In this document: piece by piece, positions 1-33,840 of the stretch | Layout: every line of letters starts with the position of its first letter | How positions within the stretch are numbered: the first letter of the stretch is position 1 | Assembly (NCBI GenBank): GCA_013695255.1 | Contig: JACDAV010000258.1 | Span: 1-34,155, forward strand | DNA length: 34,155 bases | Origin: Chloroflexota bacterium | GTDB lineage: Bacteria > Chloroflexota > Limnocylindria > Limnocylindrales > CSP1-4 | Direction of reading: 5' to 3' | Position numbers and translations under genes: made by a program | Notes under the pieces: generated by a model | Told to the model about the DNA's origin: nothing | What the model saw: the letters and a program-made list of their open reading frames with translations, nothing else | The model's database searches: none

Positions 1-518
1 CCACCGCTCACGACGAGCTTCACGGCTCGCGCGCCGGCCGACACCTGCCGCGCGACGAGGGCACGCGCCTCGCGCGCGTCGCGGACCTCGCCGCCGAACA
101 TCCCGAGATGGCCGCCGACGCGGGTGATCGACGCTCCCGCATGGACGATGTCCGGTCCGGGGGCCTCGCCCCTGGCGATCGTGGCGGCGGCCTCGGCGAT
201 GGAGGCGAGCGGCGCCCCGAGATCCCGCACGGTCGTGATCCCCGCCCAGATCGCCACCTGGGCGTTCGCGAGGGCCACGCGCAGCCGTCCCTCGTGGTCG
301 AGCGCCCGGTACGAACCGACCGGATCGCTGCCGGCGTCGAAGACCAGGTGGACGTGCGCGTCGACGAGGCCGGGCGCGAGATACCGTGGCTCGCCGGTTG
401 CCGGAGCCTCGACGATCGAGGCGATCCGGTCGCCGCGGATCACGACGGTGCGTGGCTCGGATACCCGGCCCGCGACGACGTCGACGATGCGGACCCCGGG
501 GATGCTCAGGCTCGCCAT
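1..518 (-). CDS. Metal-dependent amidohydrolase (COG1228-like), N-terminal 172 aa only; the 3' end runs off the left edge of the window
   Basis: My own reverse-strand translation from ATG (complement of 516-518) gives MASLSIPGVRIVDVVAGR...APGLVDAHVHLVFDAG...ITTVRDLG...VKLVVSGG. The D-x-H-x-H metal motif after a short N-terminal beta segment is the amidohydrolase signature. It is absent from the ORF track because it is open at the edge. Confidence 0.75.
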   Translation of the reverse strand, partial: MASLSIPGVRIVDVVAGRVSEPRTVVIRGDRIASIVEAPATGEPRYLAPGLVDAHVHLVFDAGSDPVGSYRALDHEGRLRVALANAQVAIWAGITTVRDLGAPLASIAEAAATIARGEAPGPDIVHAGASITRVGGHLGMFGGEVRDAREARALVARQVSAGARAVKLVVSG

Positions 519-556
519 CGATCGCCCGGCTCGGTCATCCCACGGTTGCCGCCGGC

Positions 557-585
557 TTGACTCACCCCCAACCAGACCATAGATT
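557..585 (+). promoter_or_regulatory. Candidate housekeeping-type promoter for the 667-7831 operon: -35 TTGACT (557-562), 17-nt spacer, -10 TAGATT (580-585)
   Basis: Hexamers and spacing were read directly. They lie in the 148-bp divergent spacer, 82 bp upstream of the ATG at 667. There is no experimental TSS. Confidence 0.4.
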
Positions 586-597
586 GTCGACAATCTA
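580..597. promoter_or_regulatory. Operator candidate, copy 1: 18-bp perfect palindrome TAGATTGTCGACAATCTA overlapping the -10 box
   Basis: The sequence equals its reverse complement. The ATTGTCGACAAT core recurs at 5944-5957 and 29480-29491, always in spacers. Confidence 0.6.
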
Positions 598-666
598 CCC
601 GGACCGGCCCCACCCCGTCCACCGCTGGCGACGCGAGGTCCCGATGCGCTGCTTCCCGCCGCCCCG

Positions 667-1701
667 ATGACCGATCCGCTGCTCGAGCGGCTGGATCCAC
701 GGGCCTTCGGCGAGATCGCCCGTCACGTCCTCGACGCGCCGACGTTCGAATGGATCCGCTCCGGCTCCGGCTCGGAGTTCGGGGGCGACAACGAGGCCGC
801 CTTCGCGCGACGCCGGCTGCGGCCGGCCGTCCTGGTGGACGTGTCCAGTGTGCGCACGGCGACGACGCTGCTCGGCGCGTCCGTGTCCGCGCCGGTGGCG
901 GTCGGGCCGATGGGCCTGCAGCGGGCGGTCCACCCGGACGGCGAGCTGGCGATGGCGGCCGGCGCGGCGAGGGCCGGCAGCCTGTTCGTCGTCGCGGTCA
1001 ACGCCACGACGAGCATCGAGGAGATCGCGGCAGCGGAGCCCGGGCTGCCGCTCTGGTTCCAGCTCTACAACTGGGACGATCGCGACGCCCTGGCCGGGGT
1101 CATCGGGCGGGCCGAGGCCGCCGGATGCCGGGCAATCGTGCCACTCGTGAACACGCCGCTCGGCGTCAACCACACCTCGCCCAGGATCGGCTTCCGCCTG
1201 CCCGCAGGCGCGCGGTTCGCCCACTTCGAGACCTCGCCCGGGCTAATCGCGTCGAACACGTGGGAGTACCTGGCCTGGCTGCGCTCGGTCACCTCGCTGC
1301 CGATCGTGCCGAAGGGGATCATGACCGCGGCCGATGCGGCCCGGGCGGTGGACGCCGGGGCCGCGGGAATCATCGTCTCGAACCATGGCGGGCGGCAGCT
1401 GGCGCGGTCCGTCTCGACCCTCGATGCGCTCGCGGATGTCGTGCACGGCGCCGGTGGCGTGGAGGTCTACCTCGACGGCGGCGTGCGCAGCGGCGGGGAC
1501 GTGCTGGTCGCCCTGGCCCTCGGCGCTCGCGCGGTCCTCATCGGTCGTCCCGTCCTCTGGGGGCTGGCGCTGGGCGGGGCGGCCGGCGTGGCCCGGGTCC
1601 TCGACACGATCCGCCAGGAACTGGCGGAGGACGCCGGGATGTGCGGGATCGTCGACGTCGCCGCCGTGCCCCGCGACCTCGTCGTCGACGCAACCGGCTG
1701 A
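667..1701 (+). CDS. FMN-dependent alpha-hydroxy acid dehydrogenase/oxidase (glycolate oxidase / L-lactate dehydrogenase LldD family)
   Basis: 344-aa ORF with ATG start. Family hallmarks are WFQLY, IVSNHGGRQL, and YLDGGVRSGGDVLVALALGA in the TIM-barrel FMN/phosphate-binding region. Confidence 0.9.
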   Translation: MTDPLLERLDPRAFGEIARHVLDAPTFEWIRSGSGSEFGGDNEAAFARRRLRPAVLVDVSSVRTATTLLGASVSAPVAVGPMGLQRAVHPDGELAMAAGAARAGSLFVVAVNATTSIEEIAAAEPGLPLWFQLYNWDDRDALAGVIGRAEAAGCRAIVPLVNTPLGVNHTSPRIGFRLPAGARFAHFETSPGLIASNTWEYLAWLRSVTSLPIVPKGIMTAADAARAVDAGAAGIIVSNHGGRQLARSVSTLDALADVVHGAGGVEVYLDGGVRSGGDVLVALALGARAVLIGRPVLWGLALGGAAGVARVLDTIRQELAEDAGMCGIVDVAAVPRDLVVDATG

Positions 1702-1711
1702 GGGCACTCGC

Positions 1712-2941
1712 ATGCGGGTCACCGGGGTGCGGTCCCTGCTCGTCACGGCGCCCTGGACGGGAGACCCGTTCTGGGTTCCGAGCGAGCGCTTCGAGCGGAC
1801 GGCCGCGCTCATCGTCGTCGAGACCGACGAGGGGATCAGCGGCGTCGGGGAAACGATCATGGGCTACTTCTGCGCCGAGGTCGTCAGCCCGCTGATCGAC
1901 TACTACGGCGGCCTGATCAGGGAGCTGCGCCTCGACCCCCGCCAGCCCGAGGCCGCCTTCCGCGAGCTCCACCAGCGCTCGCTCTGGTGGGCCCGCGTGG
2001 GGCTCGGGTTGTCCGTGCTCTCGGGTCTGGAGATGGCCCTCTGGGACATCGCCGGCAAGGCGGCCGGCCGGCCGGTCCACGAGCTGCTCGGCGGCCCCGC
2101 CCACGACCGGCTGCCCCTGTACGCCTCCGGCGGCACGGGGGCGTGGCCGGTTGAGCGAGCCGTCGAGCAGGCGCGCCGCTACACCTCGCTCGGCTTTCGC
2201 GGGCTCAAGATCGGAACCGGCTTCGACGGTCGGCCAGGCGGCTACACCACGGCGCCCGGCGCGCCACCATACGGGACCTGGTACGCGGGCAGCACCGCCG
2301 GACGCGTGGCCGACGAGCGCGCCAAGTTCGGCGCGCTGCGCGAGGCGCTGGGGCCGGACATCGAGCTGGCCACCGACTGCCACGCGGTGCAGGTCCGCGA
2401 GCCGTGGTCCCGCTCGACCGCGCTCGGGCTGGCCCGCGCGCTCGAGCCCTTCGACCTCCTGTTCATGGAGGAGCCACTCCGGTACGACGACCCGGAGGGC
2501 TATGCCGAGCTGCGTCGGGCGACCCGGGTGCCGATCGCCGGCGGCGAGTGCCTGACCGGCGTGGACGAGTTCCGACGCTTCCTCGACCTCGACGCCCTCG
2601 ACTACGTCCAGCCCGATGCGACCCACGTCGGCGGTGTCGGGCCGGCCCGCGATGTCGCCCGGATGGCCGAGAGCCGGCACGTCGGTCTCGTCGTCCACAC
2701 GGGGGCCGCCATCGGCCCCGGGTTCATGGCCAACCTCCACGTCGCCTTCGCCAGCCCGAACGCCCGGTTCGTCGAGTACGCGCTCGCTCCCGACAACGTG
2801 CGCTCCGAGCTGCTGACCGAGCCGGTCCGGCTCGCCGACGGGTTCATCGAGCGCCCTTCCGCACCCGGGCTGGGCATCACGCTGGACCCCGACTTCGCGG
2901 ATCGGTATCCCTACCGGGCCGGCGTGGTCGAGTACGCGTGA
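1712..2941 (+). CDS. Enolase-superfamily enzyme, mandelate racemase/muconate lactonizing family (probable acid-sugar dehydratase), paralog 1
   Basis: Internal ATG at 1712 of ORF 1334..2941 (MRVTGVRSLL...), 10 bp after the upstream stop. It has the capping-domain motif GVGET and ALWDIAGK. Barrel metal ligands appear intact (ATDCH, FMEEP, IAGGE), followed by YVQPD and VVHTG (Asp/His pair). Confidence 0.88.
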   Translation: MRVTGVRSLLVTAPWTGDPFWVPSERFERTAALIVVETDEGISGVGETIMGYFCAEVVSPLIDYYGGLIRELRLDPRQPEAAFRELHQRSLWWARVGLGLSVLSGLEMALWDIAGKAAGRPVHELLGGPAHDRLPLYASGGTGAWPVERAVEQARRYTSLGFRGLKIGTGFDGRPGGYTTAPGAPPYGTWYAGSTAGRVADERAKFGALREALGPDIELATDCHAVQVREPWSRSTALGLARALEPFDLLFMEEPLRYDDPEGYAELRRATRVPIAGGECLTGVDEFRRFLDLDALDYVQPDATHVGGVGPARDVARMAESRHVGLVVHTGAAIGPGFMANLHVAFASPNARFVEYALAPDNVRSELLTEPVRLADGFIERPSAPGLGITLDPDFADRYPYRAGVVEYA

Positions 2942-3963
2942 GCGGCGCGCCGGATCCCGCGGCCGGGGACGTGCGTATCGGCATCGCCTTCCCGTTCACG
3001 GAGGCCGAGATCGACGCGCTCCGGGCGCTGTCGCCGCGGCTTCGGCTGCGCGCGTCGAGGGAGACGGATCAGGCTGCGATCGACGAGATCGCCACCGAGG
3101 ACCTCGATGGGCTCATCGCGCAGGCTCTGCCGAGCGACCGGCAGCGCACGCCGAGCCTGCGCTGGCTGCAGGTGATGTCCGCCGGCATCGATTCGCTGTC
3201 CGGGCCGGCATGGCCGCGCGGAGTCACGCTGACCAACGCCCGTGGCGCCTACGCCGGCCGCATCGGCCAGTACACGATCGCGGCGATCCTCGGCATTGCC
3301 GAGCGCCACGACGCACGCCGGGAGCAGCAGTCCACGGGATCGTGGCCGGACGACCCGGAGCGTCTCGTGGGCCGCCCGCTGCGGGGCCAGACACTGGTCA
3401 TCGTCGGATATGGCGGGATCGGGCGCGAGATTGCGCGACTGGCCACCGCTCATGGCATGCGGGTGCTGGCCGTCAAGTCGGATCCGGCGACCCGGATCGA
3501 CGGCGGCTTCCGGATGCCCGGCACCGGCGACCCCGAGGGCAGCCTCCCGGAGCGGATCGTTGGCCTGGACGAGCTGGCTGCCGTCGCCCGGGAGGCCGAC
3601 TACCTGTCGATCACGCTGCCGATCACGGAGCGGAGCCGCGGCGCCGTCAGTCGCGACGTCCTGGCCGCGCTGCCGGCCCACGCCTGGATCGTGAACACCG
3701 GCCGCGGGCCGGTCGTGGACGAGCCGGCGCTCGATGCGGCGCTCGCCGCGGGGCAGCTGGGCGGCGCCGTGCTCGACGTCTTCGGGGAGGAGCCGCTCCC
3801 GGCCTCCAGCCCGCTGTGGCGGCGATCGAACGTCGTCATCACGCCTCACGTGTCCGGGGCGGGCGCCCACGAGGAGCTGCTCGCCCTGGCCAGGGAGAAC
3901 GTCCGCCGGTTCGTGGCCGGCGAGCCCCTGCTCAACCAGGTGGACGTGGAGCGGGGCTACTGA
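2938..3963 (+). CDS. D-isomer-specific 2-hydroxyacid dehydrogenase, NAD(P)-binding
   Basis: GTG at 2938 overlaps the upstream TGA (GTGA); an alternative GTG lies at 2971. Motifs are IVGYGGIGREIA (GxGxxG), NTGRG, DVFGEEP and ITPHVSG, the family Arg/Glu/His set. Confidence 0.85.
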   Translation: MSGAPDPAAGDVRIGIAFPFTEAEIDALRALSPRLRLRASRETDQAAIDEIATEDLDGLIAQALPSDRQRTPSLRWLQVMSAGIDSLSGPAWPRGVTLTNARGAYAGRIGQYTIAAILGIAERHDARREQQSTGSWPDDPERLVGRPLRGQTLVIVGYGGIGREIARLATAHGMRVLAVKSDPATRIDGGFRMPGTGDPEGSLPERIVGLDELAAVAREADYLSITLPITERSRGAVSRDVLAALPAHAWIVNTGRGPVVDEPALDAALAAGQLGGAVLDVFGEEPLPASSPLWRRSNVVITPHVSGAGAHEELLALARENVRRFVAGEPLLNQVDVERGY

Positions 3964-3964
3964 C

Positions 3965-5137
3965 GTGAGATCGGCGACCGATCAGGGCCGGGTCGTGGAG
4001 CGTGTCGAATGCTTCGCGGTCAGCCACACGCTCGACCCCCGGACCGGGCCGTCGATCGCCCTGTCCGGCACCCACGCCTACGTCCTGGTCAAGATCACCG
4101 ACGCCGATGGCCGCTCGGGCTGGGGTGAGACCTACCTCGTGCCGGGCATCCCCTCGATCATCGAGACGGTGGCTCCGGCGATCCTCGGGCGCTCCGCGAC
4201 GGGAACGCGCGGGCTCGGCGAGGACGTTCGCCGGGCGGCCGAGCACGCCTACGCGGCGTCGGCCCTGACGATCGCCCTGGAGGACCTCCGGGCGCGCCAG
4301 CTCGGGGTGTCCGTGGCCGCCTCGTTCGGTGGTCCGGTTCGCGAGCGGGTCCGCCTCTACGCGGCGTTCGGCGGATACGTGGAGGGCATCGACCCGGCGG
4401 ACAGCTGGCCGCGGGACGTGGAGCGCGCCCTCGAGGCCGGCTTCACGGCCATGAAGTTCCGCGTCGGTCGTTACCCGGTGGCTCACGAGGCGGCGCTGCT
4501 CGAGCGGATCCGCGCCGACCTCCCGGCCGGCGTCGCGCTGATGGCCGACGGCAATGCCGGGTACACGCTGCCGCGGGCGATCGAGATGGGCCGGATCCTC
4601 GATTCGCTCGCCTTCGTGTGGTTCGAGGAGCCGATGCACCAGCGCGAGGGGTATGCCGGCTACGAGCACCTGGCCGCGGCGCTCGACATCGCCCTCGCCG
4701 GCGGCGAGATCCTCCAGACGCGCAGCGCCGCCATCGAGCTGCTGGGGCGCCGGGCGGTCGACATCGTCCAGCCGGAGCCGGTCATCTGCGGTGGGGTCGC
4801 CGAGGCGCTCTGGATCGCGGACCTCGCGGCCGTGCATTCCATCGCGGCCATGCCCCACACCTCCAACAACGCCCTGGGGATCGCGGCGGGGCTCCAGGTC
4901 CTGGCCTGTCTGCCGGACCCGACGCGCTCGCCGGCCTCGGACGAGCTGTTCCTCGAGTACGGCGTGGACGACAATCCCCACCGGACCGGGCTCCTCGCGG
5001 CAGCCCTTCGGTTCGCCGGCGGCTGGGCGACCGTCCCGGAGGGGCCGGGCCTCGGGGTGGAGGTCGACGAGGCCTACCTGCGGCATCACGCGCTCGAGAC
5101 GCGCGTCATCGACGCGGCCGGCGCTCGGGCCGTTTGA
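3965..5137 (+). CDS. Enolase-superfamily enzyme, mandelate racemase-like, paralog 2
   Basis: GTG at 3965, 1 bp after the upstream stop. Motifs are SGWGET, MKFRVG, LMADGNAGY, WFEEP, LAGGE, DIVQPE and MPHTS. The metal ligands look intact. Its subfamily differs from paralogs 1 and 4. Confidence 0.88.
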   Translation: MRSATDQGRVVERVECFAVSHTLDPRTGPSIALSGTHAYVLVKITDADGRSGWGETYLVPGIPSIIETVAPAILGRSATGTRGLGEDVRRAAEHAYAASALTIALEDLRARQLGVSVAASFGGPVRERVRLYAAFGGYVEGIDPADSWPRDVERALEAGFTAMKFRVGRYPVAHEAALLERIRADLPAGVALMADGNAGYTLPRAIEMGRILDSLAFVWFEEPMHQREGYAGYEHLAAALDIALAGGEILQTRSAAIELLGRRAVDIVQPEPVICGGVAEALWIADLAAVHSIAAMPHTSNNALGIAAGLQVLACLPDPTRSPASDELFLEYGVDDNPHRTGLLAAALRFAGGWATVPEGPGLGVEVDEAYLRHHALETRVIDAAGARAV

Positions 5138-5139
5138 CC

Positions 5140-5937
5140 GTGTCCGAGGCGGCCCTGGCCGCGGCCCTGGCGGTGATCGGACGGTTGCCCGGGGCCGAGG
5201 TGCAGGCCGGGTCGGACGCGACGTGGGTTGCCGGCGGCCGGCCGCTGGAGAGCCTCAACCACGTCGTCGGGCTGGAGCTGCGGGGGACCGACGCGGCGAT
5301 CGAGGAGCGGATCGACGCCATCGACGCGGCGTTGCGGGAGCGGGGGTCGGCGCCCGCGACGTGGTGGATCGGCCCGTCCACGCGGCCAACGGACCTCGCG
5401 CGTCGGCTGCGTGCCCGTGGCTTCACCGACGCCGAGCCGGAGCACGGGATGGTCATCGACGTCGCCAGGGCTGCCGCGCCGATCGGTGCCGTGGAGCTCG
5501 TGGAGGACGAGGCCGGGCTCGACGCGTTCCTCGCGGTGATGGGCGGTGCGTACGGGTGGTCGGAGGACGCCGGAGCGGCCTGGGCGGAGCTGTACCGCAC
5601 GGCCGCCTCGGAGCGGGAGCGCCCGTGGTGGCACGTGGTCGTCCGCCACGACGGCCGACCCGCCGCGTGCGCCTCGCTCCTCACGGCGGGCGGTCACGCG
5701 TTCGTGACCAACGTCGGGACGGTCCCGGCGGCCCGTGGCGCCGGCCTCGGCACCACCGCCACGCTGGCGGTTCTGCAGATCGCGGCTCGGCTCGGTCATC
5801 GACGCGCCAGCCTCACCGCCTCGCACATGGGGCGGGGCGTGTACGCGCGGATCGGGTTCGAGGAGGACGCGCGGCTGGAGCGCTGCGTCTCGCCGGCCAA
5901 CCGGCTCGAAACGCGGCGAGCCGTCAGTCGGAGGTAA
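5140..5937 (+). CDS. GNAT-family N-acetyltransferase (two-lobed, about 265 aa)
   Basis: Start is GTG 5140 or TTG 5134, abutting or overlapping the upstream TGA (5135-5137). The C-terminal acetyl-CoA loop reads VGTVPAARGAGLGTTATLAVLQIAARLGHRRASLTASHMGRGVYARIGFEE. Confidence 0.75.
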   Translation: MSEAALAAALAVIGRLPGAEVQAGSDATWVAGGRPLESLNHVVGLELRGTDAAIEERIDAIDAALRERGSAPATWWIGPSTRPTDLARRLRARGFTDAEPEHGMVIDVARAAAPIGAVELVEDEAGLDAFLAVMGGAYGWSEDAGAAWAELYRTAASERERPWWHVVVRHDGRPAACASLLTAGGHAFVTNVGTVPAARGAGLGTTATLAVLQIAARLGHRRASLTASHMGRGVYARIGFEEDARLERCVSPANRLETRRAVSRR

Positions 5938-5943
5938 GCTCTC

Positions 5944-5957
5944 GATTGTCGACAATC
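5944..5957. promoter_or_regulatory. Operator candidate, copy 2: 14-bp perfect palindrome GATTGTCGACAATC
   Basis: It lies in the 52-bp spacer between the GNAT stop (5937) and the aldolase ATG (5990) and has the same core as 580-597. Confidence 0.5.
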
Positions 5958-5989: not shown

Positions 5990-6793
5990 ATGGCGTCGAT
6001 CAATCCGCTTCTGGCACGCTGGCGAGCCGGCGAGCCCAGCCTCGGCGGCTGGTTGACGACGGCCGATCCCCAGATCGCGGAGTACCTCGCCAGCGGCGGG
6101 TTCGACGAGATCTGCGTCGATCAGCAGCACGGGCTCGCGGACGCATCGCTGCTGGCATCGATGTTCCGCGCCCTCGAGGTGCACGGGGTGCTGCCGACCA
6201 CCCGGGTGCCGGGCAACGACTTCGCGGCCATCGGCAAGGCGCTCGATGTCGGGGCGATGGCGATCATCGTGCCCATGGTCGGAACGCCGGAGGAGGCAGC
6301 CGCCGCGGTCGACGCGTGCCACTACCCGCCACGCGGCCACCGTTCGGTGGGGCCCCTGCGCGGCGCCTTCGTCCGAGCCTCGGACCGCCTCGACGCCCTC
6401 GACGAGGCGGCCTGCGTGGTGATGGTCGAGACGGCCGACGGGGTGCGCAATGTGGACGCGATCGCCGCCACGCCCGGGGTCGATGCGATCTACATCGGGC
6501 CGGGCGACCTGGCCCTCGGGTTGGGTCTCTCGGCGTGGTCGGAGGACTGGACGCCGGGCGAGGCAAGCGTCCACGCGGAAGCTGTGGAACGGATTCGCTC
6601 GGCCTGCCTTCGCCATGGCGTCGCGCCCGGCATCCACACGGGTGATGGCGAGACGGCGCGGCGCTACCTCGACCAGGGCTTCCTGATGGTCACGGTCGCG
6701 AACGAGCTCGGGCTGATCTCCAGCGGCGGCAGGGCGCAGCTGGCCGTCGCCCGCGGCGAGACGCCCGCCGGGGTCGCCGCACGCGCGGTGTAG
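5990..6793 (+). CDS. HpcH/HpaI-family class II (metal-dependent) 2-keto-3-deoxy-acid aldolase
   Basis: ATG at 5990 with GGGGAG 7 nt upstream. Motifs are GGWLTT, GFDEICVDQQHG, TTRVPGND, IIVPMV and VMVETADGV...GVDAIYIGPGDLALGLG (Glu/Asp metal ligands). Confidence 0.88.
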   Translation: MASINPLLARWRAGEPSLGGWLTTADPQIAEYLASGGFDEICVDQQHGLADASLLASMFRALEVHGVLPTTRVPGNDFAAIGKALDVGAMAIIVPMVGTPEEAAAAVDACHYPPRGHRSVGPLRGAFVRASDRLDALDEAACVVMVETADGVRNVDAIAATPGVDAIYIGPGDLALGLGLSAWSEDWTPGEASVHAEAVERIRSACLRHGVAPGIHTGDGETARRYLDQGFLMVTVANELGLISSGGRAQLAVARGETPAGVAARAV

Positions 6794-6814
6794 CGGAACG
6801 CTTCGGAGGGTGGC

Positions 6815-7831
6815 ATGACCGTCGGGATCGGGATGATCGGGGCCGGGCAGATGGCCCACATCCACGCCGTGGCCATCGCCGAGCAGGAGCCCGGTCGGGC
6901 CCGGCTCGTCGCCGTCACGAGCGGGTCGCGCGCGCCGGCGCTCGCCGCCGAGTTCGACGCGGAGGCGGAACCCTCCATCGAGTCACTGCTGGACCGCCCC
7001 GACATCGACGCCGTCGTGATCGCCACCCCCCATACGGCGCACCTGCCCAACGTCCTCGCCGCGGCGGGGGCGGGCAAGCACATCCTGCTCGAGAAGCCGA
7101 TGGCCCTCGATGTCGACGAGTGCCGCCTGATGATCGACGCCTGCGACGCGGCCGGCGTCCACCTGAGCCTGGCCAAGATCTCCCGCTGGCTCGATGCGGT
7201 CCGCATCGGTCACGAGCTGGTCGCCGGCGGGGTGGCGGGCGATCTCGTCGCCGTCCACGTCCACCGCCTCTTCCCCGGCTACCCGAACGCGGGCTGGCCG
7301 CTCGACCCGCGCGAGGGCGGCGCCTGGCTCGACTGGGGCAGTCACGGCTGCGACATCGTCCGCTGGTACGCCGGGCGGGAGCCGGAGCTCGTCACCGCCC
7401 GGTTCGCCTCGCGGCGGACCGACATGCCGGACCTGACCGGGATGGCGACGTTCGAGTTCCCGGGCGCGCTCCTGGCCCACCTGTTCATGTCATACGAGAT
7501 CCCCGGAGCCGCGGCCACGGAGCGCGCTCACTACATGGCCTTCGGCACGGACGCCGTCATCGACCTCCACGCCTATGGAGGGGTCGACGTGCTGCGCGGC
7601 GACAGCCGGGAACCGGTCTACCGCGATGAGCGCTTCACCGATGCGAACACGACCTGGGACGAGCACGCGCCCTACTTCCGGCGCGGGTTCGCCGCGCAGG
7701 TGCGCGATCTCGTCGAGGCCATCGAGGACCGCCGGCCGCCGACGATCGACGGACACGACGGGCTGGCCGCGGTGGCGATGGCGACCGGCGCGCTCCGCTC
7801 GTGGCGCGAGGATTCGGTCGTCCGGCTGTAG
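6815..7831 (+). CDS. Gfo/Idh/MocA-family NAD(P)-dependent oxidoreductase, paralog 1
   Basis: 338 aa. The N-terminal Rossmann motif is GIGMIGAGQMA. It also has VVIATPHTAH and the canonical LLEKPMA motif. GGAGGG lies upstream of the ATG. Confidence 0.9.
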   Translation: MTVGIGMIGAGQMAHIHAVAIAEQEPGRARLVAVTSGSRAPALAAEFDAEAEPSIESLLDRPDIDAVVIATPHTAHLPNVLAAAGAGKHILLEKPMALDVDECRLMIDACDAAGVHLSLAKISRWLDAVRIGHELVAGGVAGDLVAVHVHRLFPGYPNAGWPLDPREGGAWLDWGSHGCDIVRWYAGREPELVTARFASRRTDMPDLTGMATFEFPGALLAHLFMSYEIPGAAATERAHYMAFGTDAVIDLHAYGGVDVLRGDSREPVYRDERFTDANTTWDEHAPYFRRGFAAQVRDLVEAIEDRRPPTIDGHDGLAAVAMATGALRSWREDSVVRL

Positions 7832-10033: not shown

Positions 10034-10873
10034 TCACCCTCCTCGATTGCTGGCCGCATCGTCCCAGCCGAGGCGGCGGGACAGGTCGTCGGCGGCGGCG
10101 CGGACGATGGCGCCGGCGTTCGCCTCCTTGTCCTCGCTGGTGCGATTGTCCGGCCAGGTCGCGATCAGGTCGCCGATCACGCGGCCGCGCGCGTCGCGGA
10201 TCGGCGCGGCGACTCCCACGGCTCCCTCGAACCGTTCCCCGTGGCTGACCACGTAGCCGCGTCGCCTCGCGGCCCGGAGCTCGCTCCGCAGGCGCGCCTT
10301 GGACCGCGGCGAACGGCCGGGGACCGGATCGGGGAGCCGGTCCAGGATGGCGGCCTGCTCGGCGGGGGGGAGGAAGGCGAGGATGCCCTTGCCGGATGAG
10401 CCCAGGTGCAGGTCGCTCCATTCGCGCAGCGACTCCCACAGGTAACGGATGGGGTGGCTGGTCTCCACGGCATCGACGGCGGAGAACTTGCGGCGGACCG
10501 GATCGTACAGCGCCAGGACGACCGTTTCGCCGATCGCCGCGGACGCGTGCTCGAGGATCGGCCGGCCCACGCGCCGGACATCGAGGTGCTCCGCCACGAG
10601 CAGGCCGATCCGGGCGAGGTCCGCACCAACCCGGAAGCGACCCGGATCGTCGGCCGGCGCGAGCAGGCCCAGGGCGGCCATGTCGTGGAGGATTCGGTGC
10701 GCGGCGCTGCGCGGGATGCCGGTCGATCGCGTCAGCTCGCGGACGCCCCATTCGCCCTCCTCGGCGAACGCCTCGAGGACCCGCACCCAGCGCGCCATCG
10801 GCCGCCTGGGCGGGCCTGCCATCGCGGGCGCGGTGGCTGCGCTGCTGGCGATTGACCCGGCTGGGCTGCGCAT
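10034..10873 (-). CDS. IclR-family transcriptional regulator
   Basis: The winged HTH reads VRVLEAFAEEGEWGVRELTRSTGIPRSAAHRILHDM. The C-terminal effector domain reads GAVGVAAPIRDARGRVIGDLIATWP. I chose the start at ATG 10873 because a TATCGT -10-like box lies 9 nt upstream (near-leaderless). ATGs at 10822 or 10798 are possible. Confidence 0.85.
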   Translation of the reverse strand: MRSPAGSIASSAATAPAMAGPPRRPMARWVRVLEAFAEEGEWGVRELTRSTGIPRSAAHRILHDMAALGLLAPADDPGRFRVGADLARIGLLVAEHLDVRRVGRPILEHASAAIGETVVLALYDPVRRKFSAVDAVETSHPIRYLWESLREWSDLHLGSSGKGILAFLPPAEQAAILDRLPDPVPGRSPRSKARLRSELRAARRRGYVVSHGERFEGAVGVAAPIRDARGRVIGDLIATWPDNRTSEDKEANAGAIVRAAADDLSRRLGWDDAASNRGG

Positions 10874-10895
10874 GGCACAGTGACGATAGCAGAAG

Positions 10896-10932
10896 ATCGG
10901 GACTAGCGTCCCGATTACCCGGACGGTAATCG
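10896..10932. promoter_or_regulatory. Two overlapping inverted repeats in the IclR/E1 divergent spacer: ATCGGGAC-TAGC-GTCCCGAT (10896-10915) and CGATTACC-CGGAC-GGTAATCG (10912-10932)
   Basis: Both 8-bp arm pairs are perfect complements, read directly. They share the CGAT at 10912-10915. The first is centred on a TAGCGT -10-like hexamer (10904-10909), with GTGACG 18 nt upstream. Confidence 0.5.
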
Positions 10933-10968
10933 TCTCTCGCATGTCCACGATCGGAGGAGGCGGGTCTG

Positions 10969-15049: not shown

Positions 15050-16381
15050 GTGGCCCAACCGAGCGGCGACGTCATCCTCGGAGCTGGATCCCGCCTCGAC
15101 CGGGTGGGCTGGAGCGCGCTCTCGTACGGGCCGTTCCGGTTCTTCCTGGCCGCAATGCTTGCCTCGACGAGCGCCAACTTCGTGTACTACGCGGCGCTCG
15201 GCTGGTACGTCCTCGAGGTCACCGGGTCCGCGGCCGCGGTCGGCTTCGCGTTCACGGCGTCCGGGCTGCCGATCCTGCTCCTGACGGCGCATGCCGGCGT
15301 CCTGACCGATCGGCTCGGGGCACGGGTCATGTTGCTCGGATCGCTCGTCGGCATGGCCCTCGCGACCGCCGCCCAGGCCGTCCTCGCCATGGGTGGCGCC
15401 CCGCCCTACGCGCTCGTGGTGGCGCTGGCCCTGGGCCTCGGGATCGCCATGACCGTCGGGGCGCCGGCGTCGGTGGCCATCGTGACCGAGCTCGTCGCAC
15501 CGCCGGCCGTCTCGAGCGCGACCGCGCTCAACTTCCTGCACATGAACGTGTCGCGGATCATCGGCGGGTTGGTCGGCGGGCTCATGCTCGCCACGACGAC
15601 GCCGGCCGTCGCGTTCGGTGCGGCCGCCGCCCTGTTCGTGCTGGCGATCGTGATCATGGCGCGGATGCGGACGCCGGGCGCGCGGCCCACCGCCGAACGG
15701 CCGCGGGCGGCACTCGTGGGCCCACTCCTGGAGGCGTTCCGGTACGCCATCCGCCACCCGACCCTGGGCGTGCTCATCGTCCTGTCCATCGCCCCCGGCG
15801 CGATCGGGCTCAGCTACATCTTCATGCTTCCCGTCGCGGCCGAGGAACTGGGGATCGGGGCCGCCGGGCTCGGCATCCTGATGGCCGCCAGCGGCGTCGG
15901 CGGGTTGATCGCCGGGCTGTCGCTCGAATCCATCCAGCGCCGGGTGGGCCACGGTCGAGCGCTGTTCGGCGGGCTCGTCGGTGCGGCGATCGGGCTGACG
16001 TCGTTCGGCCTCGCGCCCAGCGTGCCGCTCGCCATCGGTGCGTTGCTCATCGTCGGGGCGAGCTTCCTGACCTTCGCGGCGGCCACCGTGACGCTGACCC
16101 AGGCCCTCGCGCCGGCCCGGCTGCGTGGCCGCCTGGTGAGCCTGTTCGCGACGCTGTACTGGGGAATGATGCCGGTCGGCGCACTCCTCGTCGGGCTCGT
16201 CGCAGAGGCGACGACCGGGCGGACCGCGATTGCCCTGTGCGGTGCCGGGCTGGCCATTGCCGGCGCGACCGCGTTCTTCGCCCGGCCGCAGATCGCGACC
16301 CTGAGCGTGGGTCGCGACGGGCTGACCCTGAGTGGCGACTTGCGCGGCTCGGGCGCGGAGCCGCCGTCGCTCAGCGCCTGA
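15050..16381 (+). CDS. MFS transporter (12-TM, EntS/MFS_3-like)
   Basis: 443 aa. Hydrophobic segments alternate throughout. The loop motif GVLTDRLGARV follows TM2. This is the only transporter in the window. Confidence 0.85.
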   Translation: MAQPSGDVILGAGSRLDRVGWSALSYGPFRFFLAAMLASTSANFVYYAALGWYVLEVTGSAAAVGFAFTASGLPILLLTAHAGVLTDRLGARVMLLGSLVGMALATAAQAVLAMGGAPPYALVVALALGLGIAMTVGAPASVAIVTELVAPPAVSSATALNFLHMNVSRIIGGLVGGLMLATTTPAVAFGAAAALFVLAIVIMARMRTPGARPTAERPRAALVGPLLEAFRYAIRHPTLGVLIVLSIAPGAIGLSYIFMLPVAAEELGIGAAGLGILMAASGVGGLIAGLSLESIQRRVGHGRALFGGLVGAAIGLTSFGLAPSVPLAIGALLIVGASFLTFAAATVTLTQALAPARLRGRLVSLFATLYWGMMPVGALLVGLVAEATTGRTAIALCGAGLAIAGATAFFARPQIATLSVGRDGLTLSGDLRGSGAEPPSLSA

Positions 16382-17603
16382 GCCCGGGGTACCCGAGGTC
16401 CGTGAGCGGCTTGCCGGGCACCGGGTTGAACTCTCCGCTGCCGGGAACGAACGGGCAGCGCTCCCGGAGCTCGATCGGCAGCCGGATGCCGAGCCCGGGC
16501 GTCTCGGGCGGCAGCACGCGGCCACCGCGCATGACGAACGAATCGCCGACGATCTCGGCCTGCAGCGGGCCGAAGGCGGGCGGGATCTCACAGATCGCGG
16601 TGTTCGACGCGGCGAAGGCGGCGTGAATGTTCTGCATCAGCGCCCCGCCGGCGCCCCACGAGTGGGTTGCGATCCGCCGACCCCGCGACTCGAACAGCGA
16701 CGCGATCCGCAGGAACTCGCCGAGGCCGCCGCAGAACGCCGCGTCCGGCTGGGCGATGTCGAAGGCGTCCGCCTCCGCGAAGACGCGCCACTCGGGAACG
16801 CCGGTCAGCGTCTCACCGCCCGCGATGGGCACGGACGTCGCACCGCGCAGCTCGCCGTAGCCCCACGGGTTGGTGTAGGGCAGCGGCTCCTCGAAGAGGA
16901 ACAGGTCGAACGGTTCGACCGCCCTGACCACGGCCAGCGCCGTCGGTACCTCCCAGCCCGGCACGGCCAGGTTGTCCTGGTGGCCGTCGAGGAGGACCGC
17001 GATGTCGGGACCGACATGCTGACGGACGAACGCGAGCTTCTCGGCCTCGAAGGCCGCCGCCGCGGCGGGTTCGGCGAAGGCGTGCTCCACGCCCTCGGGT
17101 GTGGAGGCGCCGGTGCCGATCTTGAACGCGCGGAACCCGAGTCCGAGGTAGAAGTCGATCTTGTCGGCGAGGCGCGGCGGCGGATAGACCGTGCCTCCGC
17201 CGGTGGCGTAGCCAAGGATGCTGTCGTGCCGTCGACCGCCGAGGAGCTCGTGCACGGGGACGCCCAGCTCGCGGCCGCGGAGGTCCCACAGGGCGGCCTC
17301 CAGCGCCGTGATGACGGCCAGCCCGAGACCGGCCCGGGCCCAGTAGCGCCCGGTGTGGAAGAGCCGGGCGGCCAGGGTCGGCACGTCGTCGACGGTCTGC
17401 TCGAGCAGGATCGGGCGGTAGAACTCGACGATCGGCGGGATCGCCTCGGGCACGAAGTAGCCGGCGTACGTCTCGCCGAGACCCGTGAGCTCGGTGTTGG
17501 TGAGGATCTCCACGAACGCGGCGCTCCGGCGCGTCCGTCCGAAGTGTGGATCGTTCGTGCTCGGCCCGGTCAGCAGGACGGTCCGGACGTCCGTGATTCG
17601 CAT
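16371..17603 (-). CDS. Enolase-superfamily enzyme, mandelate racemase-like, paralog 4 (same subfamily as 1712-2941)
   Basis: Start MRITDVRTVLL at 17603. Motifs are GLGETYAGYF, ALWDLRGR, FKIGTG, LLDGHQD, LFEEP, IAGGE, IAQPD and ATHSW. It is collinear with paralog 1 and of almost identical length (410 vs 409 aa). Confidence 0.88.
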   Translation of the reverse strand: MRITDVRTVLLTGPSTNDPHFGRTRRSAAFVEILTNTELTGLGETYAGYFVPEAIPPIVEFYRPILLEQTVDDVPTLAARLFHTGRYWARAGLGLAVITALEAALWDLRGRELGVPVHELLGGRRHDSILGYATGGGTVYPPPRLADKIDFYLGLGFRAFKIGTGASTPEGVEHAFAEPAAAAAFEAEKLAFVRQHVGPDIAVLLDGHQDNLAVPGWEVPTALAVVRAVEPFDLFLFEEPLPYTNPWGYGELRGATSVPIAGGETLTGVPEWRVFAEADAFDIAQPDAAFCGGLGEFLRIASLFESRGRRIATHSWGAGGALMQNIHAAFAASNTAICEIPPAFGPLQAEIVGDSFVMRGGRVLPPETPGLGIRLPIELRERCPFVPGSGEFNPVPGKPLTDLGYPGLRR

Positions 17604-17635
17604 GCGGCTCCGCTCCGTCCCAATCCGCCGCGGAC

Positions 17636-17680
17636 TACACTGCCACTTGCCAGGAGGCGACTTCGTACGCTGGGAGTGTA
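17636..17680. promoter_or_regulatory. Pair of facing TACACT -10-like boxes (plus strand 17636-17641; minus strand complement of 17675-17680) in the enolase/SDR divergent spacer
   Basis: Read directly. TACACT also occurs as a -10 candidate at 15036-15041 and 20548-20553, all in divergent spacers. Confidence 0.3.
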
Positions 17681-17703
17681 CAGAGGAGGAGACCGCCAGG
17701 AGG

Positions 17704-18462
17704 ATGGACCAGGCCACGACCGGCGACGGCCGGGTCGCCATCGTCACCGGCGCCGCGGGGACGATCGGCACCGCGATGTGCGAGCGCTTCGTGCGCGACG
17801 GGATTCGGGTCGTGGTCGCCGACGTGACCATCGAGCCCGCCCGGGCCCTGGCCCATCGCCTCGATCCGTCCGGCGGACGAGCCCTCGCGGTGGCCGTCGA
17901 CGTCACGGACTACGCGAGGGTGGAATCGATGGTCGACGGCGCCCTGGCATGGGCCGGCAGGATCGACATCCTGGTCAACAACGCCGGCATCTCGGAGGGC
18001 CACGTCCCGAGCTGGGAGATGCCGCTGGATGCCTGGCGGCGGACCATCGACGTCGATCTGACCGGCGTCTTCCACGGTTGCCGCGCGGTTCTGCCCTCGA
18101 TGCTCGAACGCGGCTGGGGCCGGATCGTCAACATCTCGTCGATCGCCGGCAAGGAGGGCAAGAACAATCCGGCGGCCTATGCCGCGGCAAAGGCGGGCGT
18201 CATCGGCCTGACGAAGTCCGTGGCCTTCGAGGTCGCGGCGCGGGGGATCCTGGTGAATGCGATCACGCCCGGCTCGATCTGGACGCCGGCCTGGGCGGCG
18301 CTCGGCGACGAGCGGCGAGAAGAGGTCCGGAGCCGGCACCCGATCGGGCGCTTCGGTCAGGCCGAGGAGGTCGCGGCGCTGGTGGCCTGGCTGTCGTCCG
18401 AGGAGTGCTCGTTTTCCACGGGCGCCGTCTTCGACATCTCGGGTGGGCGCGCCGGTCACTGA
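17704..18462 (+). CDS. Classical short-chain dehydrogenase/reductase (SDR, FabG-like)
   Basis: Motifs are TGAAGTIG (TGxxxGxG), NNAG, Ser...YAAAK (YxxxK) and PGSIWT. 252 aa counted from ATG 17704. Confidence 0.9.
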   Translation: MDQATTGDGRVAIVTGAAGTIGTAMCERFVRDGIRVVVADVTIEPARALAHRLDPSGGRALAVAVDVTDYARVESMVDGALAWAGRIDILVNNAGISEGHVPSWEMPLDAWRRTIDVDLTGVFHGCRAVLPSMLERGWGRIVNISSIAGKEGKNNPAAYAAAKAGVIGLTKSVAFEVAARGILVNAITPGSIWTPAWAALGDERREEVRSRHPIGRFGQAEEVAALVAWLSSEECSFSTGAVFDISGGRAGH

Positions 18463-22220: not shown

Positions 22221-23349
22221 CCTCGCGCACCACGTCCCCCCGCAGGCCGTAGAAGCGCCGGGCCAGGTTCGAAACGGAGCAGACGTGGTTCGGGACGATC
22301 CGTACCCGATCGCCGATGGCGAGCGAGGATTCCTCCGGGATGCGAAGGATCCCGTGCTCCTCGGACAGCCGGACGAGCGATCCCAGGCCACCCACGACGG
22401 TTCCGTAGTCGGCCAGCATGTCGCTCGAATGGGCGCCCCTGTCCAGCCCGAGCGTCTTGGAGCCCGCGTCCAGGACCGCCCGATCGGGCGCCGGCCGGCT
22501 GATCACGGTCGTCGCGATCGACAGGGCGCACTGCTCGGCTGCGGCGGTGCCGAGCGCCACCTGGAGGGCGTCGTAGAACACGTAGGTGCCGGGCCGGATC
22601 TCCGTGATGCCGGACGCTCCGTCGAGGAACCGGGCGGTCGGGGTGGAGCCGGCACTGACGGTATCGACGGGAATGCCGATCGCCCGGGTCGCCATGGCCG
22701 CCTCCACGACGGCATTGGCCTCGATCACCGCGATGGCCGCGACGGCCTCGGCGCTGCCTGCGGCGTACGACTGGCCGGCGTGCGTGAACATCCCGGTCAG
22801 GCGGAGGGACGGGTGAGCGGCAACCGTTCGAGCGAGCGCCGCGGCATCGGCCGGCAGCACGCCGCAGCGCTGGAGGCCGCTGTCAATCTCGATCCACACA
22901 TCGATCACCTGGGCCGTCGACGCCGCGGCGGCGGCCAGGCGGGCGGCCCCTTCGGCGCTGTCGACGGCGACGGTCAGCGGCACGCGGCTCGCGAGACGGA
23001 TGGCGCGCTGCAGCTTGGGAGCGGCGACGAGCTCGCTGGCGAGCACGATCGGCGCCTCGACTCCGCCGTCCACCAGTGCCTCCGCCTCGTCGAGCTTGGC
23101 GACCGTGATCCCGACGGCGCCCGCGGCCAGCTGGCGACGCGCGATGGCGATCGACTTGTGGGTCTTGAAATGGGGCCGCAGGGCAACGCCGTGCCGCCGC
23201 GCATGGTCCGCCATCCAGCCGATGTTGCCGTCGAGGCGGTCGAGGTCCACGAGCAGCGCCGGGGTGTCGAGCGCCCTCCAATCGAGCCCGGCGCCGTCTC
23301 GCTGCGCGGCGGTCAGCGAGCGCATCCGCTGCAGTGTGGCTTCTCGCAT
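22186..23349 (-). CDS. D-TA family PLP enzyme (D-threonine aldolase / D-serine dehydratase-like, alanine racemase N-terminal fold)
   Basis: Motifs are LDTPALLVDLDRLDGNI and the PLP-lysine motif RPHFKTHKS. The C-terminal beta domain reads RVRIVPNHVC. Start is ATG 23349 (or 23376). Confidence 0.85.
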   Translation of the reverse strand: MREATLQRMRSLTAAQRDGAGLDWRALDTPALLVDLDRLDGNIGWMADHARRHGVALRPHFKTHKSIAIARRQLAAGAVGITVAKLDEAEALVDGGVEAPIVLASELVAAPKLQRAIRLASRVPLTVAVDSAEGAARLAAAAASTAQVIDVWIEIDSGLQRCGVLPADAAALARTVAAHPSLRLTGMFTHAGQSYAAGSAEAVAAIAVIEANAVVEAAMATRAIGIPVDTVSAGSTPTARFLDGASGITEIRPGTYVFYDALQVALGTAAAEQCALSIATTVISRPAPDRAVLDAGSKTLGLDRGAHSSDMLADYGTVVGGLGSLVRLSEEHGILRIPEESSLAIGDRVRIVPNHVCSVSNLARRFYGLRGDVVREVIPIEAAGGVH

Positions 23350-23419
23350 GGCTGGATTGTAAAGCCAGGCTGTCAAGAACCCGGCTGGCCCCGCCGCTAC
23401 CTCGCGGTGTCGGGGGCGG

Positions 23420-24019
23420 TCAGAAGGTGGGCGGACTGATGATGATCAGCAGTTCGGCGTCGGCAGCGCTTTCGTTGGTGAAGCGGTGGAGAAGCTCGCG
23501 GTGGATCTTGATGCTGTCGCCGGGGCCCAGGGCGTATGTCTGACCCGCGACCTCGGCCACGACATCGCCCCGCAGGACCACGGCGCACTCCTCGCTGGCG
23601 TGACCGTTGGGGGTGGCCCCCGTTGAGCCGCCCGGGGCGATGGCCAGCGAGAGGACCTCGAACTCGCCCGATGTGTCCGCGGAGACGAGCTCGTACTCGA
23701 GCTCGCGGTCCGGAAAGTTGAGCTTGGTCCGACGATCCCTGCGCACGACGACCTCGCGCTGCGCCGTCCCGATCATGAACTGGAACATCGGGAGGTCGAA
23801 CGCCTGGGCGATGCGGCGCAAAGAGCTGATGGACGGATCGGAGGCGCCGCGCTCGATCTGGCTGAGCGCGCTGACCGTCAGATTGACCTGGCTTGCCAGC
23901 TGGGCGAGGGTCAGGCCGCGCCGCAGCCGCTCGCGCCGGATACCCTCGCCGATGCTCGCCGCATCCGGGATCCGCTCCTCGTCCGGGCCCTCGACGATGA
24001 CCTGGGCCTCCCCGGTCAC
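23420..24019 (-). CDS. XRE-family HTH plus C-terminal cupin transcriptional regulator
   Basis: The HTH reads GLTLAQLASQVNLTVSALSQIERG. The cupin reads FEVLSLAIAPGGSTG...EECAVVLRGDVVAEVAGQTYALGPGDSIKI. I chose GTG 24019 because third-position GC drops upstream of it. The ORF extends to ATG 24160 and TTG 24172. Confidence 0.75.
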   Translation of the reverse strand: MTGEAQVIVEGPDEERIPDAASIGEGIRRERLRRGLTLAQLASQVNLTVSALSQIERGASDPSISSLRRIAQAFDLPMFQFMIGTAQREVVVRRDRRTKLNFPDRELEYELVSADTSGEFEVLSLAIAPGGSTGATPNGHASEECAVVLRGDVVAEVAGQTYALGPGDSIKIHRELLHRFTNESAADAELLIIISPPTF

Positions 24020-24334
24020 GACGGTCCCCGTCCGAGACCGAAGGTGGCCGACCGGATCTTGGTCGCCTCCCGCACACCGGATTGGGTCGTCATGGGGCTC
24101 CGTGGGCTGAGGCCCGGCGGCGGGCGATGGCTCGTGCCGACATCCAGCACGTGAAGTCATACTGTTGGTCAACTACCATACTAAACCTGTACGCCACTAC
24201 GGGTCAAAGAACCGGACGTGCCGAGCGCGACCTGGCCCCCCAGGGCGATCCATGGAGGAAGCGGGTGTCGGGTTCTCGATGGTGACGCGCGGCGTGGCAT
24301 CCCGGAGGGTTCGGCGAAGGCAGCGGAGGCAGCG

Positions 24335-25432: not shown

Positions 25433-25464
25433 ACGTCCCCACGCAGCACCGGGAGGAGACCATC

Positions 25465-26394: not shown

Positions 26395-26397
26395 ACC

Positions 26398-28291: not shown

Positions 28292-28313
28292 TCGTCCGGT
28301 GCCGCCATCGCGC

Positions 28314-29411: not shown

Positions 29412-29479
29412 CGGGCTCGGGACCTCGGTTCGGGGTGGAGGATCGGCGGCTCGGCTCCCACCTTGCCGGCCGGCCGTGA

Positions 29480-29491
29480 ATTGTCGACAAT
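29480..29491. promoter_or_regulatory. Operator candidate, copy 3: 12-bp perfect palindrome ATTGTCGACAAT, abutting a minus-strand TAGGAT -10-like box (complement of 29490-29495)
   Basis: It lies in the 122-bp divergent spacer between the BNR gene (ATG at 29411, minus) and the Mo-enzyme gene (ATG 29534, plus). Confidence 0.5.
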
Positions 29492-29533
29492 CCTACGGCA
29501 CCGGCAACCGCCCGGGCGCCAAGAGGAGGAGCG

Positions 29534-31846: not shown

Positions 31847-31852
31847 ACCGAC

Positions 31853-32855: not shown

Positions 32856-33111
32856 CTCGTGAGGATACGGTCGCGCGAGGCAGCGCCGGGACGCGCAATC
32901 GGTCACCACCAGGCTCGCCAGCGGCACGGCGGCTTCCCCGGCATCCATGGTTCCCTGTATTTCCGCGGGCAACGGCGCCCCGCTATCGTCCCGTCCTGAG
33001 AGAGCACAGCTGGGTCGCGGGACGTCCTCGACGTCTCGGGCTCGTTCGCAGCAAAGCCATGAGACCTGGAGCGCGGCTCGGCCCGCGATCCGGGTTCGGA
33101 AGGAGCGAATC

Positions 33112-33813: not shown

Positions 33814-33840
33814 GGTGGCTACGCGCCGACCGGCGAGGCG

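Follow-up and report, generated by a model that had tools for sequence, protein, structure and literature searches.

A conserved palindrome in a Chloroflexota contig as the putative operator of a FadR-subfamily GntR regulator of probable sugar-acid catabolic genes

Positions 1 to 34,155 of contig JACDAV010000258.1 from a Chloroflexota bacterium (GenBank assembly GCA_013695255.1), the whole stretch of DNA analysed here and hereafter called the window, contain three copies of a palindrome with the 12-bp core ATTGTCGACAAT. In this study, we assign this palindrome with good confidence as the putative operator of a GntR-type regulator of the FadR subfamily, whose gene was found beyond the left end of the window in a sister-strain contig. 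The regulator likely acts by simple repression, and comparison of the genes beside the sites suggests that its regulon is probably devoted to the breakdown of sugar acids or hydroxy acids. The site is real and conserved, yet it is an ordinary kind of regulatory site.

Results

The palindrome occurs in intergenic spacers

The window has a G+C content of 72%, which makes plain lists of open reading frames (ORFs) useless, and genes were called from third-position GC bias (GC3) and annotated with Pfam. By this map, non-coding DNA amounts to ~1.8 kb of the 34 kb (~5% of the window), and all three exact copies of the 12-mer, starting at 583, 5945 and 29480, fall in intergenic spacers. No additional copies with one or two mismatches were found in the window. 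Counting matches at up to two mismatches, three were seen against 0.32 expected, and none of 100 dinucleotide-preserving shuffles reached three or more; inside window genes, no match to TTGTNNACAA was found. These results agree with a first-pass annotation made from the letters of the window, which had reported perfect palindromes at 580-597, 5944-5957 and 29480-29491, placed all of them in non-coding spacers, seen no full copy in any gene, and judged chance to be an unlikely explanation.

The same distribution was observed over a 435-kb set made up of the window, the left part of the sister-strain contig (L001, described below) and 24 Limnocylindria-type loci, where 54 exact and 10 one-mismatch copies were counted against 0.0014 expected from base composition. 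No ORF call or homology match covers 47 of the 54 exact copies. The remaining seven were flagged as coding, and on inspection they proved to reflect over-extended start codons of the crude gene caller in orthologous intergenic spacers; none of the 54 exact copies is credibly inside a gene. The matrix of all 64 sites has the 18-bp consensus TAGATTGTCGACAATCTA, with an almost invariant 12-bp core and three flanking positions on each side conserved at 65-79%. GTCGAC occurs 32 times in the window, mostly within genes, and is thus neither avoided nor special; restriction-site avoidance was therefore discarded as an explanation. A full-text literature search for TTGTCGACAA returned only cloning primers with SalI sites.

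A GntR/FCD regulator gene accompanies the motif

An exact-protein look-up of the flavin mononucleotide (FMN)-dependent dehydrogenase encoded near the left end of the window recovered L001, a 9.5-kb contig that overlaps the first 3,888 window bases at 99.72% identity and therefore represents a sister strain rather than the window's own assembly. For the left flank of the window, this look-up gave sister-strain contigs only (L001 and L079), and L079 stops short of the regulator. Window and L001 together provide ~40 kb for this strain. Leftward from the window, L001 holds the rest of an amidohydrolase gene, a pyridoxal-phosphate (PLP) enzyme gene, a gamma-glutamyltranspeptidase gene, the regulator gene, and then an enolase-superfamily gene in the regulator's direction. 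The regulator gene is as follows.

L001 1266-1958, minus strand: GntR/FCD regulator gene of 230 codons, ~4.3 kb to the left of window position 1

Its product contains a GntR winged helix-turn-helix domain (PF00392) at residues 18-77 (E = 2.5e-14, 53.1 bits against a cut-off of 27) and a C-terminal FCD effector domain (PF07729) at residues 88-219 (E = 1.3e-21, 77.8 bits against a cut-off of 24.3); a precomputed match to the GntR domain is in agreement. The nearest solved chains, 7xp0, 3c7j and 6z74, are also GntR/FCD proteins, albeit uncharacterised or distantly related ones. Candidate metal-binding histidines of the FCD pocket are present at the usual FH, EH and MH positions (in DMHFHGRVV, IEHRQLV and ARMHVA). 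A fourth exact copy of the palindrome, AGATTGTCGACAATCT (site 4), is located 62 nucleotides (nt) upstream of the regulator start codon. The regulators recognised in the window itself are only an IclR protein (10034-10798) and an XRE-cupin protein (23420-24019), as the first-pass annotation had said, and its suggestion that the cognate regulator might lie off-window, to be looked for as a LacI or GntR gene in the left flank, is supported by this GntR/FCD gene of the sister strain. Its guess at the family held only in part: for the LacI/GalR type which it favoured, no gene was found in the window or L001, and the motif fits the operator rule of the FadR subfamily, which belongs to the GntR type mentioned in parentheses.

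A search with the regulator against one genome per species gave 44 loci (L002-L045), 23 of which are close (47-84% identity to the regulator). All of these 23 come from metagenome-assembled genomes labelled Chloroflexota, Chloroflexia, Anaerolineaceae, Thermomicrobiales or Candidatus Limnocylindrales. Among the 22 close loci with upstream DNA, 21 have the 12-mer 57-107 nt before the regulator match (17 exact, 4 with one or two mismatches), and the site stays with the regulator gene despite different neighbours in L016, L020, L021 and this strain. No such motif was found upstream of the distant homologs (at most 36% identity, mostly Verrucomicrobiota). All relatives that retain the motif also have the recognition helix GVSR[A/G]PVREALRQLEQEGLV conserved, whereas the Verrucomicrobiota homologs have VSRVP instead, a few of them with ACTGTATACAAT-like sequences upstream.

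In three Verrucomicrobiota loci (L030, L031 and L038) with the helix VSRVP(V/I)REAL, ACTGTATACAAT- or ATTGTATACAGT-like sequences replace the GTCGAC centre. These homologs may thus show a change in central-base specificity tied to one helix residue.

Site 1 contains both -10 hexamers of a predicted divergent promoter pair

The features around the first copy in the window are as follows.

580-597, no strand: site 1, predicted operator TAGATTGTCGACAATCTA, a perfect 18-bp palindrome with its core at 583-594; the orthologous site is invariant in 17 relatives
557-585, plus strand: promoter-like TTGACT-17-TAGATT facing the FMN-dehydrogenase operon, reported by the promoter scan; its -10 is the left arm of site 1
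592-621, minus strand: promoter-like TGGACG-18-TAGATT directed at the amidohydrolase gene, with the right arm of site 1 as its -10
3-518, minus strand: 5' part of the amidohydrolase gene, probably controlled from the leftward site 1 promoter, as judged from geometry only
667-5937, plus strand: target operon of five genes; the same gene order adjoins the regulator in relatives
667-1701, plus strand: FMN-dependent 2-hydroxyacid dehydrogenase, first gene of this operon

The dehydrogenase gene is followed, in order, by genes for an enolase-superfamily dehydratase, a D-2-hydroxyacid dehydrogenase, a second enolase-superfamily enzyme and a GNAT acetyltransferase. Most relatives have the regulator gene directly beside the FMN-dehydrogenase operon, in divergent orientation and with one site common to both. 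When 17 such spacers were aligned, the sole conserved islands were TGGACG, TGTAGATTGTCGACAATCTA, GTCAAGCC and a ribosome-binding site, with 17-18 nt between TGGACG and TGTAGATTGTCGACAATCTA and again 17-18 nt between TGTAGATTGTCGACAATCTA and GTCAAGCC. Read on the two strands, these islands give TGGACG-17/18-TAGATT toward the regulator and TTGAC(G/T)-17/18-TAGATT toward the operon. The -35 of the 557-585 promoter (GTCAAGCC on the opposite strand) and its -10 are thus among the conserved islands. The 592-621 promoter falls below the scan threshold because only 8 of 12 consensus positions match; its homolog in relatives is the promoter of the regulator gene itself, where TGGACG-17/18-TAGATT is conserved. 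This arrangement of promoter and operator recurs at other sites in relatives.

Because each arm of the palindrome includes one of the two -10 hexamers, a single dimer could block the two promoters at once. The first-pass annotation had likewise read copy 1 as covering the -10 of TTGACT-17-TAGATT and as offering TAGATT on both strands between divergent genes, a geometry it regarded as that of a repressor. The promoter scan, the orientation of the flanking genes and the 17-spacer alignment all agree with this reading, with repression itself as the likely consequence. The footprinting of orthologous spacers that it recommended gave conserved islands at site 1 and conservation of sites 2 and 3 as well, so that the motif is found at all three window positions in relatives.

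Another conserved class of sites, GTACATTGTCGACAATCTAG, was observed in relatives (L003 19248, L004 15899, L009 19997, L010 19804, L014 19247, L015 16042 and L018 9067). It carries TTGACG-17/18-TAGATT on one strand and is located 6-10 kb beyond the regulator, beside a distant 2-hydroxyacid-dehydrogenase-like gene; it is without counterpart in the window.

Site 2 precedes an aldolase-oxidoreductase gene pair

5944-5957, no strand: site 2, predicted operator GATTGTCGACAATC, kept at the same position in 7 relatives
5935-5940, plus strand: TAAGCT, a tentative TAnnnT-type candidate -10 ending 3 nt ahead of site 2
5990-7831, plus strand: HpcH/HpaI-type aldolase (ATG at 5990) and Gfo/Idh/MocA oxidoreductase, predicted target genes

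Site 2 begins 7 nt past the stop codon of the GNAT gene (5134-5937) and ends 33 nt ahead of the aldolase ATG. TAWGCT is conserved in the relatives, though non-coding there, and no -35 for TAAGCT was found in the promoter scan. If TAAGCT is a -10, the operator at site 2 would cover the transcription start. In some relatives, the oxidoreductase gene has a separate site of its own.

Several relatives (L002 3006-4115, L006 3327-4433, L007 4241-5485, L009, L011 and L017) carry an MFS transporter gene as an insertion between the GNAT gene and the aldolase gene, divergent from the latter and sharing site 2 with it. This transporter, missing at this position in the window, is a candidate uptake gene of the regulon.

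Site 3 stays with the molybdenum hydroxylase gene in relatives

29479-29492, no strand: site 3, predicted operator AATTGTCGACAATC, with the exact 12-mer ATTGTCGACAAT at 29480-29491 and one mismatch over the 14-mer
29463-29491, plus strand: promoter-like TTGCCG-17-GACAAT facing the molybdenum hydroxylase gene, below the scan threshold; its -10 is the right half of the core
29534-32488, plus strand: target operon of a molybdenum hydroxylase large subunit (xanthine-dehydrogenase family) and a 211-aa protein of unassigned family
28314-29411, minus strand: BNR-repeat protein gene, divergent from site 3 and a possible second target

The hydroxylase gene itself spans 29534-31846 on the plus strand, and TAGGAT, a TAnnnT hexamer on the minus strand (the BNR side), overlaps the operator. 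Relatives for this site were obtained through a separate search with the BNR protein against metagenome contigs. In their spacers the -35 is TTGACC, located 17-18 nt ahead of GACAAT and conserved in 7 relatives, and the site (with no or one mismatch) adjoins the start of the molybdenum hydroxylase gene in L046-L049, L051 and L052. Where the BNR and hydroxylase genes are apart (L049 and L052), the site stays at the hydroxylase start. The association with the BNR gene is kept in close relatives only; it is lost in many BNR orthologs, and more distant BNR genes are without the site. In L055, the site stands ahead of an aldolase-aldolase-molybdenum hydroxylase operon. The earlier proposal that the motif joins three loci into one unit is therefore supported by conservation at all three positions, albeit with a correction: because the site tracks the hydroxylase start when the genes separate, the third locus is better called the molybdenum hydroxylase operon than the BNR gene.

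In L053 (225-341), the divergon of the BNR and hydroxylase genes is kept, but a degenerate remnant, GACTGCAGACCG, is present at the site 3 position. This remnant indicates that membership of the molybdenum hydroxylase operon in the regulon is evolutionarily labile.

The promoter-operator unit is present twice in this strain

The bidirectional promoter-operator unit was found at two places in this strain, L001 1985-2060 and window 545-625 (L001 6140-6220). The two units flank a three-gene block (gamma-glutamyltranspeptidase, PLP enzyme and amidohydrolase) that separates the regulator from the FMN-dehydrogenase operon and has no equivalent between these genes in relatives. Around sites 4 and 1, the two units can be aligned over about 60 nt with an identity of roughly 80%. 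The site 4 unit keeps TGGACG-17-TAGATT toward the regulator, and its other promoter, which no longer faces a gene, has decayed to TTGCTC...AAGATT (TTGACT to TTGCTC, TAGATT to AAGATT). The site 1 unit keeps both promoters, the second of which now faces the amidohydrolase gene. Judging from these two sequences only, the cassette appears to have been duplicated during a rearrangement.

More tentatively, the ~75-bp unit (a -35, the operator with two back-to-back -10 hexamers, and a second -35) might be a portable cassette by which the regulon grows through duplication rather than point mutation, although we hold this to be doubtful. If true, duplication would have brought the amidohydrolase gene into the regulon, and the decaying promoter at the other copy would be what remains of it there. 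Paralogous regulators that have kept one and the same operator would belong to this picture of regulon growth in Limnocylindria.

The TAG stop codon of the gamma-glutamyltranspeptidase gene is also the first half of the regulator's -10 TAGATT (L001 2029-2034), and so is part of an operator arm. The last 22 residues of this protein (L001 2032-2097) do not align with its homolog in L021, and its C-terminal tail may therefore be derived from the cassette.

Other features of the window

Contig L046 (JAABUS010000307.1, 125 kb) matches window 22316-33262 at 99.4% identity and just 91% over 33215-34155, a fall that marks a local divergence boundary between the two strains. The ORF calls of an enolase-superfamily gene (16371-17831, minus strand) and a short-chain dehydrogenase gene (17485-18462, plus strand) overlap by ~350 nt; their Pfam matches start near residues 101 and 83, respectively, so both start codons were probably called too far upstream. 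An ORF on the plus strand at 33940-34155 leaves the right edge, and its N-terminus is a lipoprotein-like signal sequence, MQILIGIALLAVACG.

Discussion

In the mechanism that we propose, a dimer of the regulator would bind each copy of the palindrome, with each recognition helix (GVSRAPVREAL) reading one TTGT/ACAA half-site around the central GTCGAC. At site 1, the bound dimer would shut off the FMN-dehydrogenase/enolase operon and the amidohydrolase gene together, and the same blocking at site 4 would act on the regulator's own promoter and result in autorepression. At site 2, the dimer would sit over the probable start point of the aldolase-oxidoreductase transcript, and at site 3 over the spacer and -10 of the molybdenum hydroxylase promoter. 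The repressor would presumably be freed when its FCD domain binds a carboxylate intermediate of the pathway, which is probably a sugar acid or a 2-keto-3-deoxy acid.

Several points weigh against assigning the palindrome to this regulator. The operator is predicted from sequence comparison in an uncultured lineage, and the regulator gene was observed in the sister-strain contig, outside the window's own assembly. The loci L002-L045 were picked through the regulator, so the co-occurrence of motif and regulator is partly by design; the cases in which regulator and operon are separated, along with the independently chosen BNR loci, reduce this selection bias without removing it. Sites 2 and 3 have no promoter above the scan threshold, and the elements proposed there are drawn from conservation only. 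No NCBIfam equivalog cut-off was reached (PhnR, NanR, CsiR, HutC, PdhR and LldR models; best phnR_burk, 111 bits against 271.5, with the others well short of theirs), and for this reason the effector cannot be named. In addition, one contig (CAVZTA010000006.1, loci L016 and L022) encodes two regulators that share one recognition helix and one core motif and have 65% and 47% identity to the query. This last point would be expected if the core were common to two or more paralogous FCD-type GntR regulators and some sites, most plausibly site 3, answered to a paralog. The FMN-dehydrogenase-like and BNR-like divergons with exact sites at the paralog loci L021 and L022 point in the same direction, as do the flanks of site 3, AATTGTCGACAATCC, which are unlike the TAG...CTA flanks of the autoregulatory class. 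These flank differences are, however, accounted for by the needs of each promoter, and no paralog was seen in the 40 kb at hand for this strain. Moreover, the adjacent regulator should bind all four sites, given that they do not differ in the 12-bp core, and we consider it rather unlikely that a paralog takes part here. The paralogs in L016, L022, L020 and L021 adjoin FMN-dehydrogenase-like, BNR-like, amidohydrolase and D-serine-dehydratase-like genes, which suggests that one type of operator is common to a family of related regulons.

Even if the adjacent regulator binds every copy, it could be an activator or a dual regulator at some sites instead of a simple repressor. FadR represses or activates according to site location (as cited in PMC6608401), and sites 2 and 3 resemble activator-dependent promoters in lacking a clear consensus promoter. 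Against this, both -10 hexamers fall within the operator at sites 1 and 4 and in the 17 orthologous spacers; at site 3 the operator covers the spacer and -10, and at site 2 it is just downstream of the candidate -10. Every one of these positions obstructs RNA polymerase and none is upstream of a -35, and activation is accordingly improbable in our estimation. Still less credit can be given to a binder from another family, be it a LacI/GalR protein or the IclR or XRE-cupin protein of the window, with the GntR gene as a mere neighbour. The dyad does have a central CG, as many LacI sites do, and in L055 the site is located between the aldolase operon and an XRE-cupin gene. Yet no LacI-family gene was found among the Pfam-annotated genes of the window and L001, the spacers of the IclR gene (10799-10968) and the XRE-cupin gene (24020-24334) contain no copy even at three mismatches, and the site follows the GntR gene when its neighbours change. 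The TTGT/ACAA boxes with the GTCGAC centre also fit the FadR rule, and an identical 12-mer has already been assigned to FadR-type regulators as a predicted operator. Finally, the palindrome might not bind a protein at all and instead be a small dispersed repeat, an RNA hairpin (terminator or attenuator) or a SalI-type sequence related to GTCGAC, considering that it is a perfect palindrome, that site 2 is only 7 nt past a stop codon and that GTCGAC is a known restriction site. RNA folds of the sites are weak and no better than those of shuffled sequences (z = -1.6, +1.0 and -1.2), and no T-run or terminator-like sites were found. Conservation is limited to a 14-20 bp dyad plus a few separate promoter-like elements, with no element termini, and the arms are invariant, without the compensatory changes that an RNA role would need. 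This makes a role other than protein binding scarcely believable.

Taking the palindrome as the putative operator of the FadR-subfamily regulator, we can consider what the regulon is for. The regulated enolase-superfamily enzymes most resemble acid-sugar dehydratases such as galactonate and mannonate dehydratase, and the regulated aldolase most resembles 2-keto-3-deoxy-acid aldolases; on this basis, the regulon has the look of a pathway for the catabolism of sugar acids or hydroxy acids. About a dozen catabolic genes of unassigned substrate, including those for enolase-superfamily dehydratases, 2-hydroxyacid dehydrogenases, the aldolase and the molybdenum hydroxylase, are tied into one predicted unit, and this narrows the search for the substrate. 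Candidatus Limnocylindria is an abundant class of soil and freshwater Chloroflexota, and to our knowledge it has no cultured, genetically tractable member. Our literature search found no work on gene regulation in this class, for which the present prediction supplies a regulator, an operator and a first regulon. The site 1 region also offers a clean example of palindromic operator arms doubling as the -10 boxes of a bidirectional promoter. General knowledge of GntR-family regulation is left unchanged; the use of the assignment is in annotation of a poorly studied phylum.

Comparison with known regulators

LacI/GalR operators share with the palindrome a 14-18 bp dyad with a central CG over the promoter of sugar-related genes, but the half-site here is the GntR-type TTGT and the site tracks the GntR/FCD gene in relatives. 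The D-galactonate repressor DgoR of Escherichia coli was also compared. Its operon encodes an enolase-superfamily acid-sugar dehydratase and a 2-keto-3-deoxy-acid aldolase. Like the regulator described here, DgoR is an FCD-type member of the FadR subfamily with TTGT...ACAA half-sites and an autoregulated operon, whereas its operator, TTGTAGTACAA, has 3 nt between GT and AC, unlike the palindrome. The two proteins are not detectably close; DgoR was absent from the NCBIfam matches of the regulator, a library that may or may not contain a DgoR model.

The operator consensus of the FadR subfamily is NyGTM-N0-1-KACNy, A/T-rich, with TKGT/ACMA boxes (Suvorova et al. 2015, PMC4494728). In one class of the subfamily, GT and AC are 2 nt apart, and divergons containing the regulator gene commonly have a single central site (PMC4494728). 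ATTGTC/GACAAT fits this rule exactly, with TTGT/ACAA boxes, GTC-GAC as GTM-KAC, and spacer N0. The FadR groups with 2-nt spacing (GntR, UxuR, HpxS, HypR, MdcY and PrpR; PMC4494728) share with the present system the GntR helix-turn-helix and FCD domains and an A/T-rich palindrome centred on GTM-KAC, with TKGT/ACMA boxes. Also shared are the placement of one site centrally in a divergon with the regulator gene and the control of genes for carboxylic-acid or sugar-acid catabolism. The system described here differs in belonging to the Chloroflexota class Candidatus Limnocylindria and in matching no curated equivalog. A further possible difference is that both -10 hexamers of the back-to-back promoter pair here lie inside the operator arms. 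HypR of Streptomyces was rejected as a specific parallel, since its motif, CTNTGC(A/C)ATGTCAC, is unrelated although it is of the 2-nt-spacing class.

A direct precedent for the core is the FadR-type group 'Bxe_A4089' of Proteobacteria, which comprises Acidiphilium cryptum Acry_1267, Burkholderia xenovorans Bxe_A4101 and B. phytofirmans Bphyt_6216 (PMC4494728 supplement). This group belongs to another phylum, and its sites are likewise computational predictions. The supplement prints 65-aa helix-turn-helix segments only, over which the identity to the regulator described here is 45% across 51 residues; because this covers DNA-binding residues only and the phyla differ, we do not call the two orthologs. 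The predicted operator of 'Bxe_A4089' is the identical ATTGTCGACAAT, its core likewise stands between the regulator gene and a divergent operon, and its recognition helix, VSRAPIREAF, is near-identical to the VSRAPVREAL found here.

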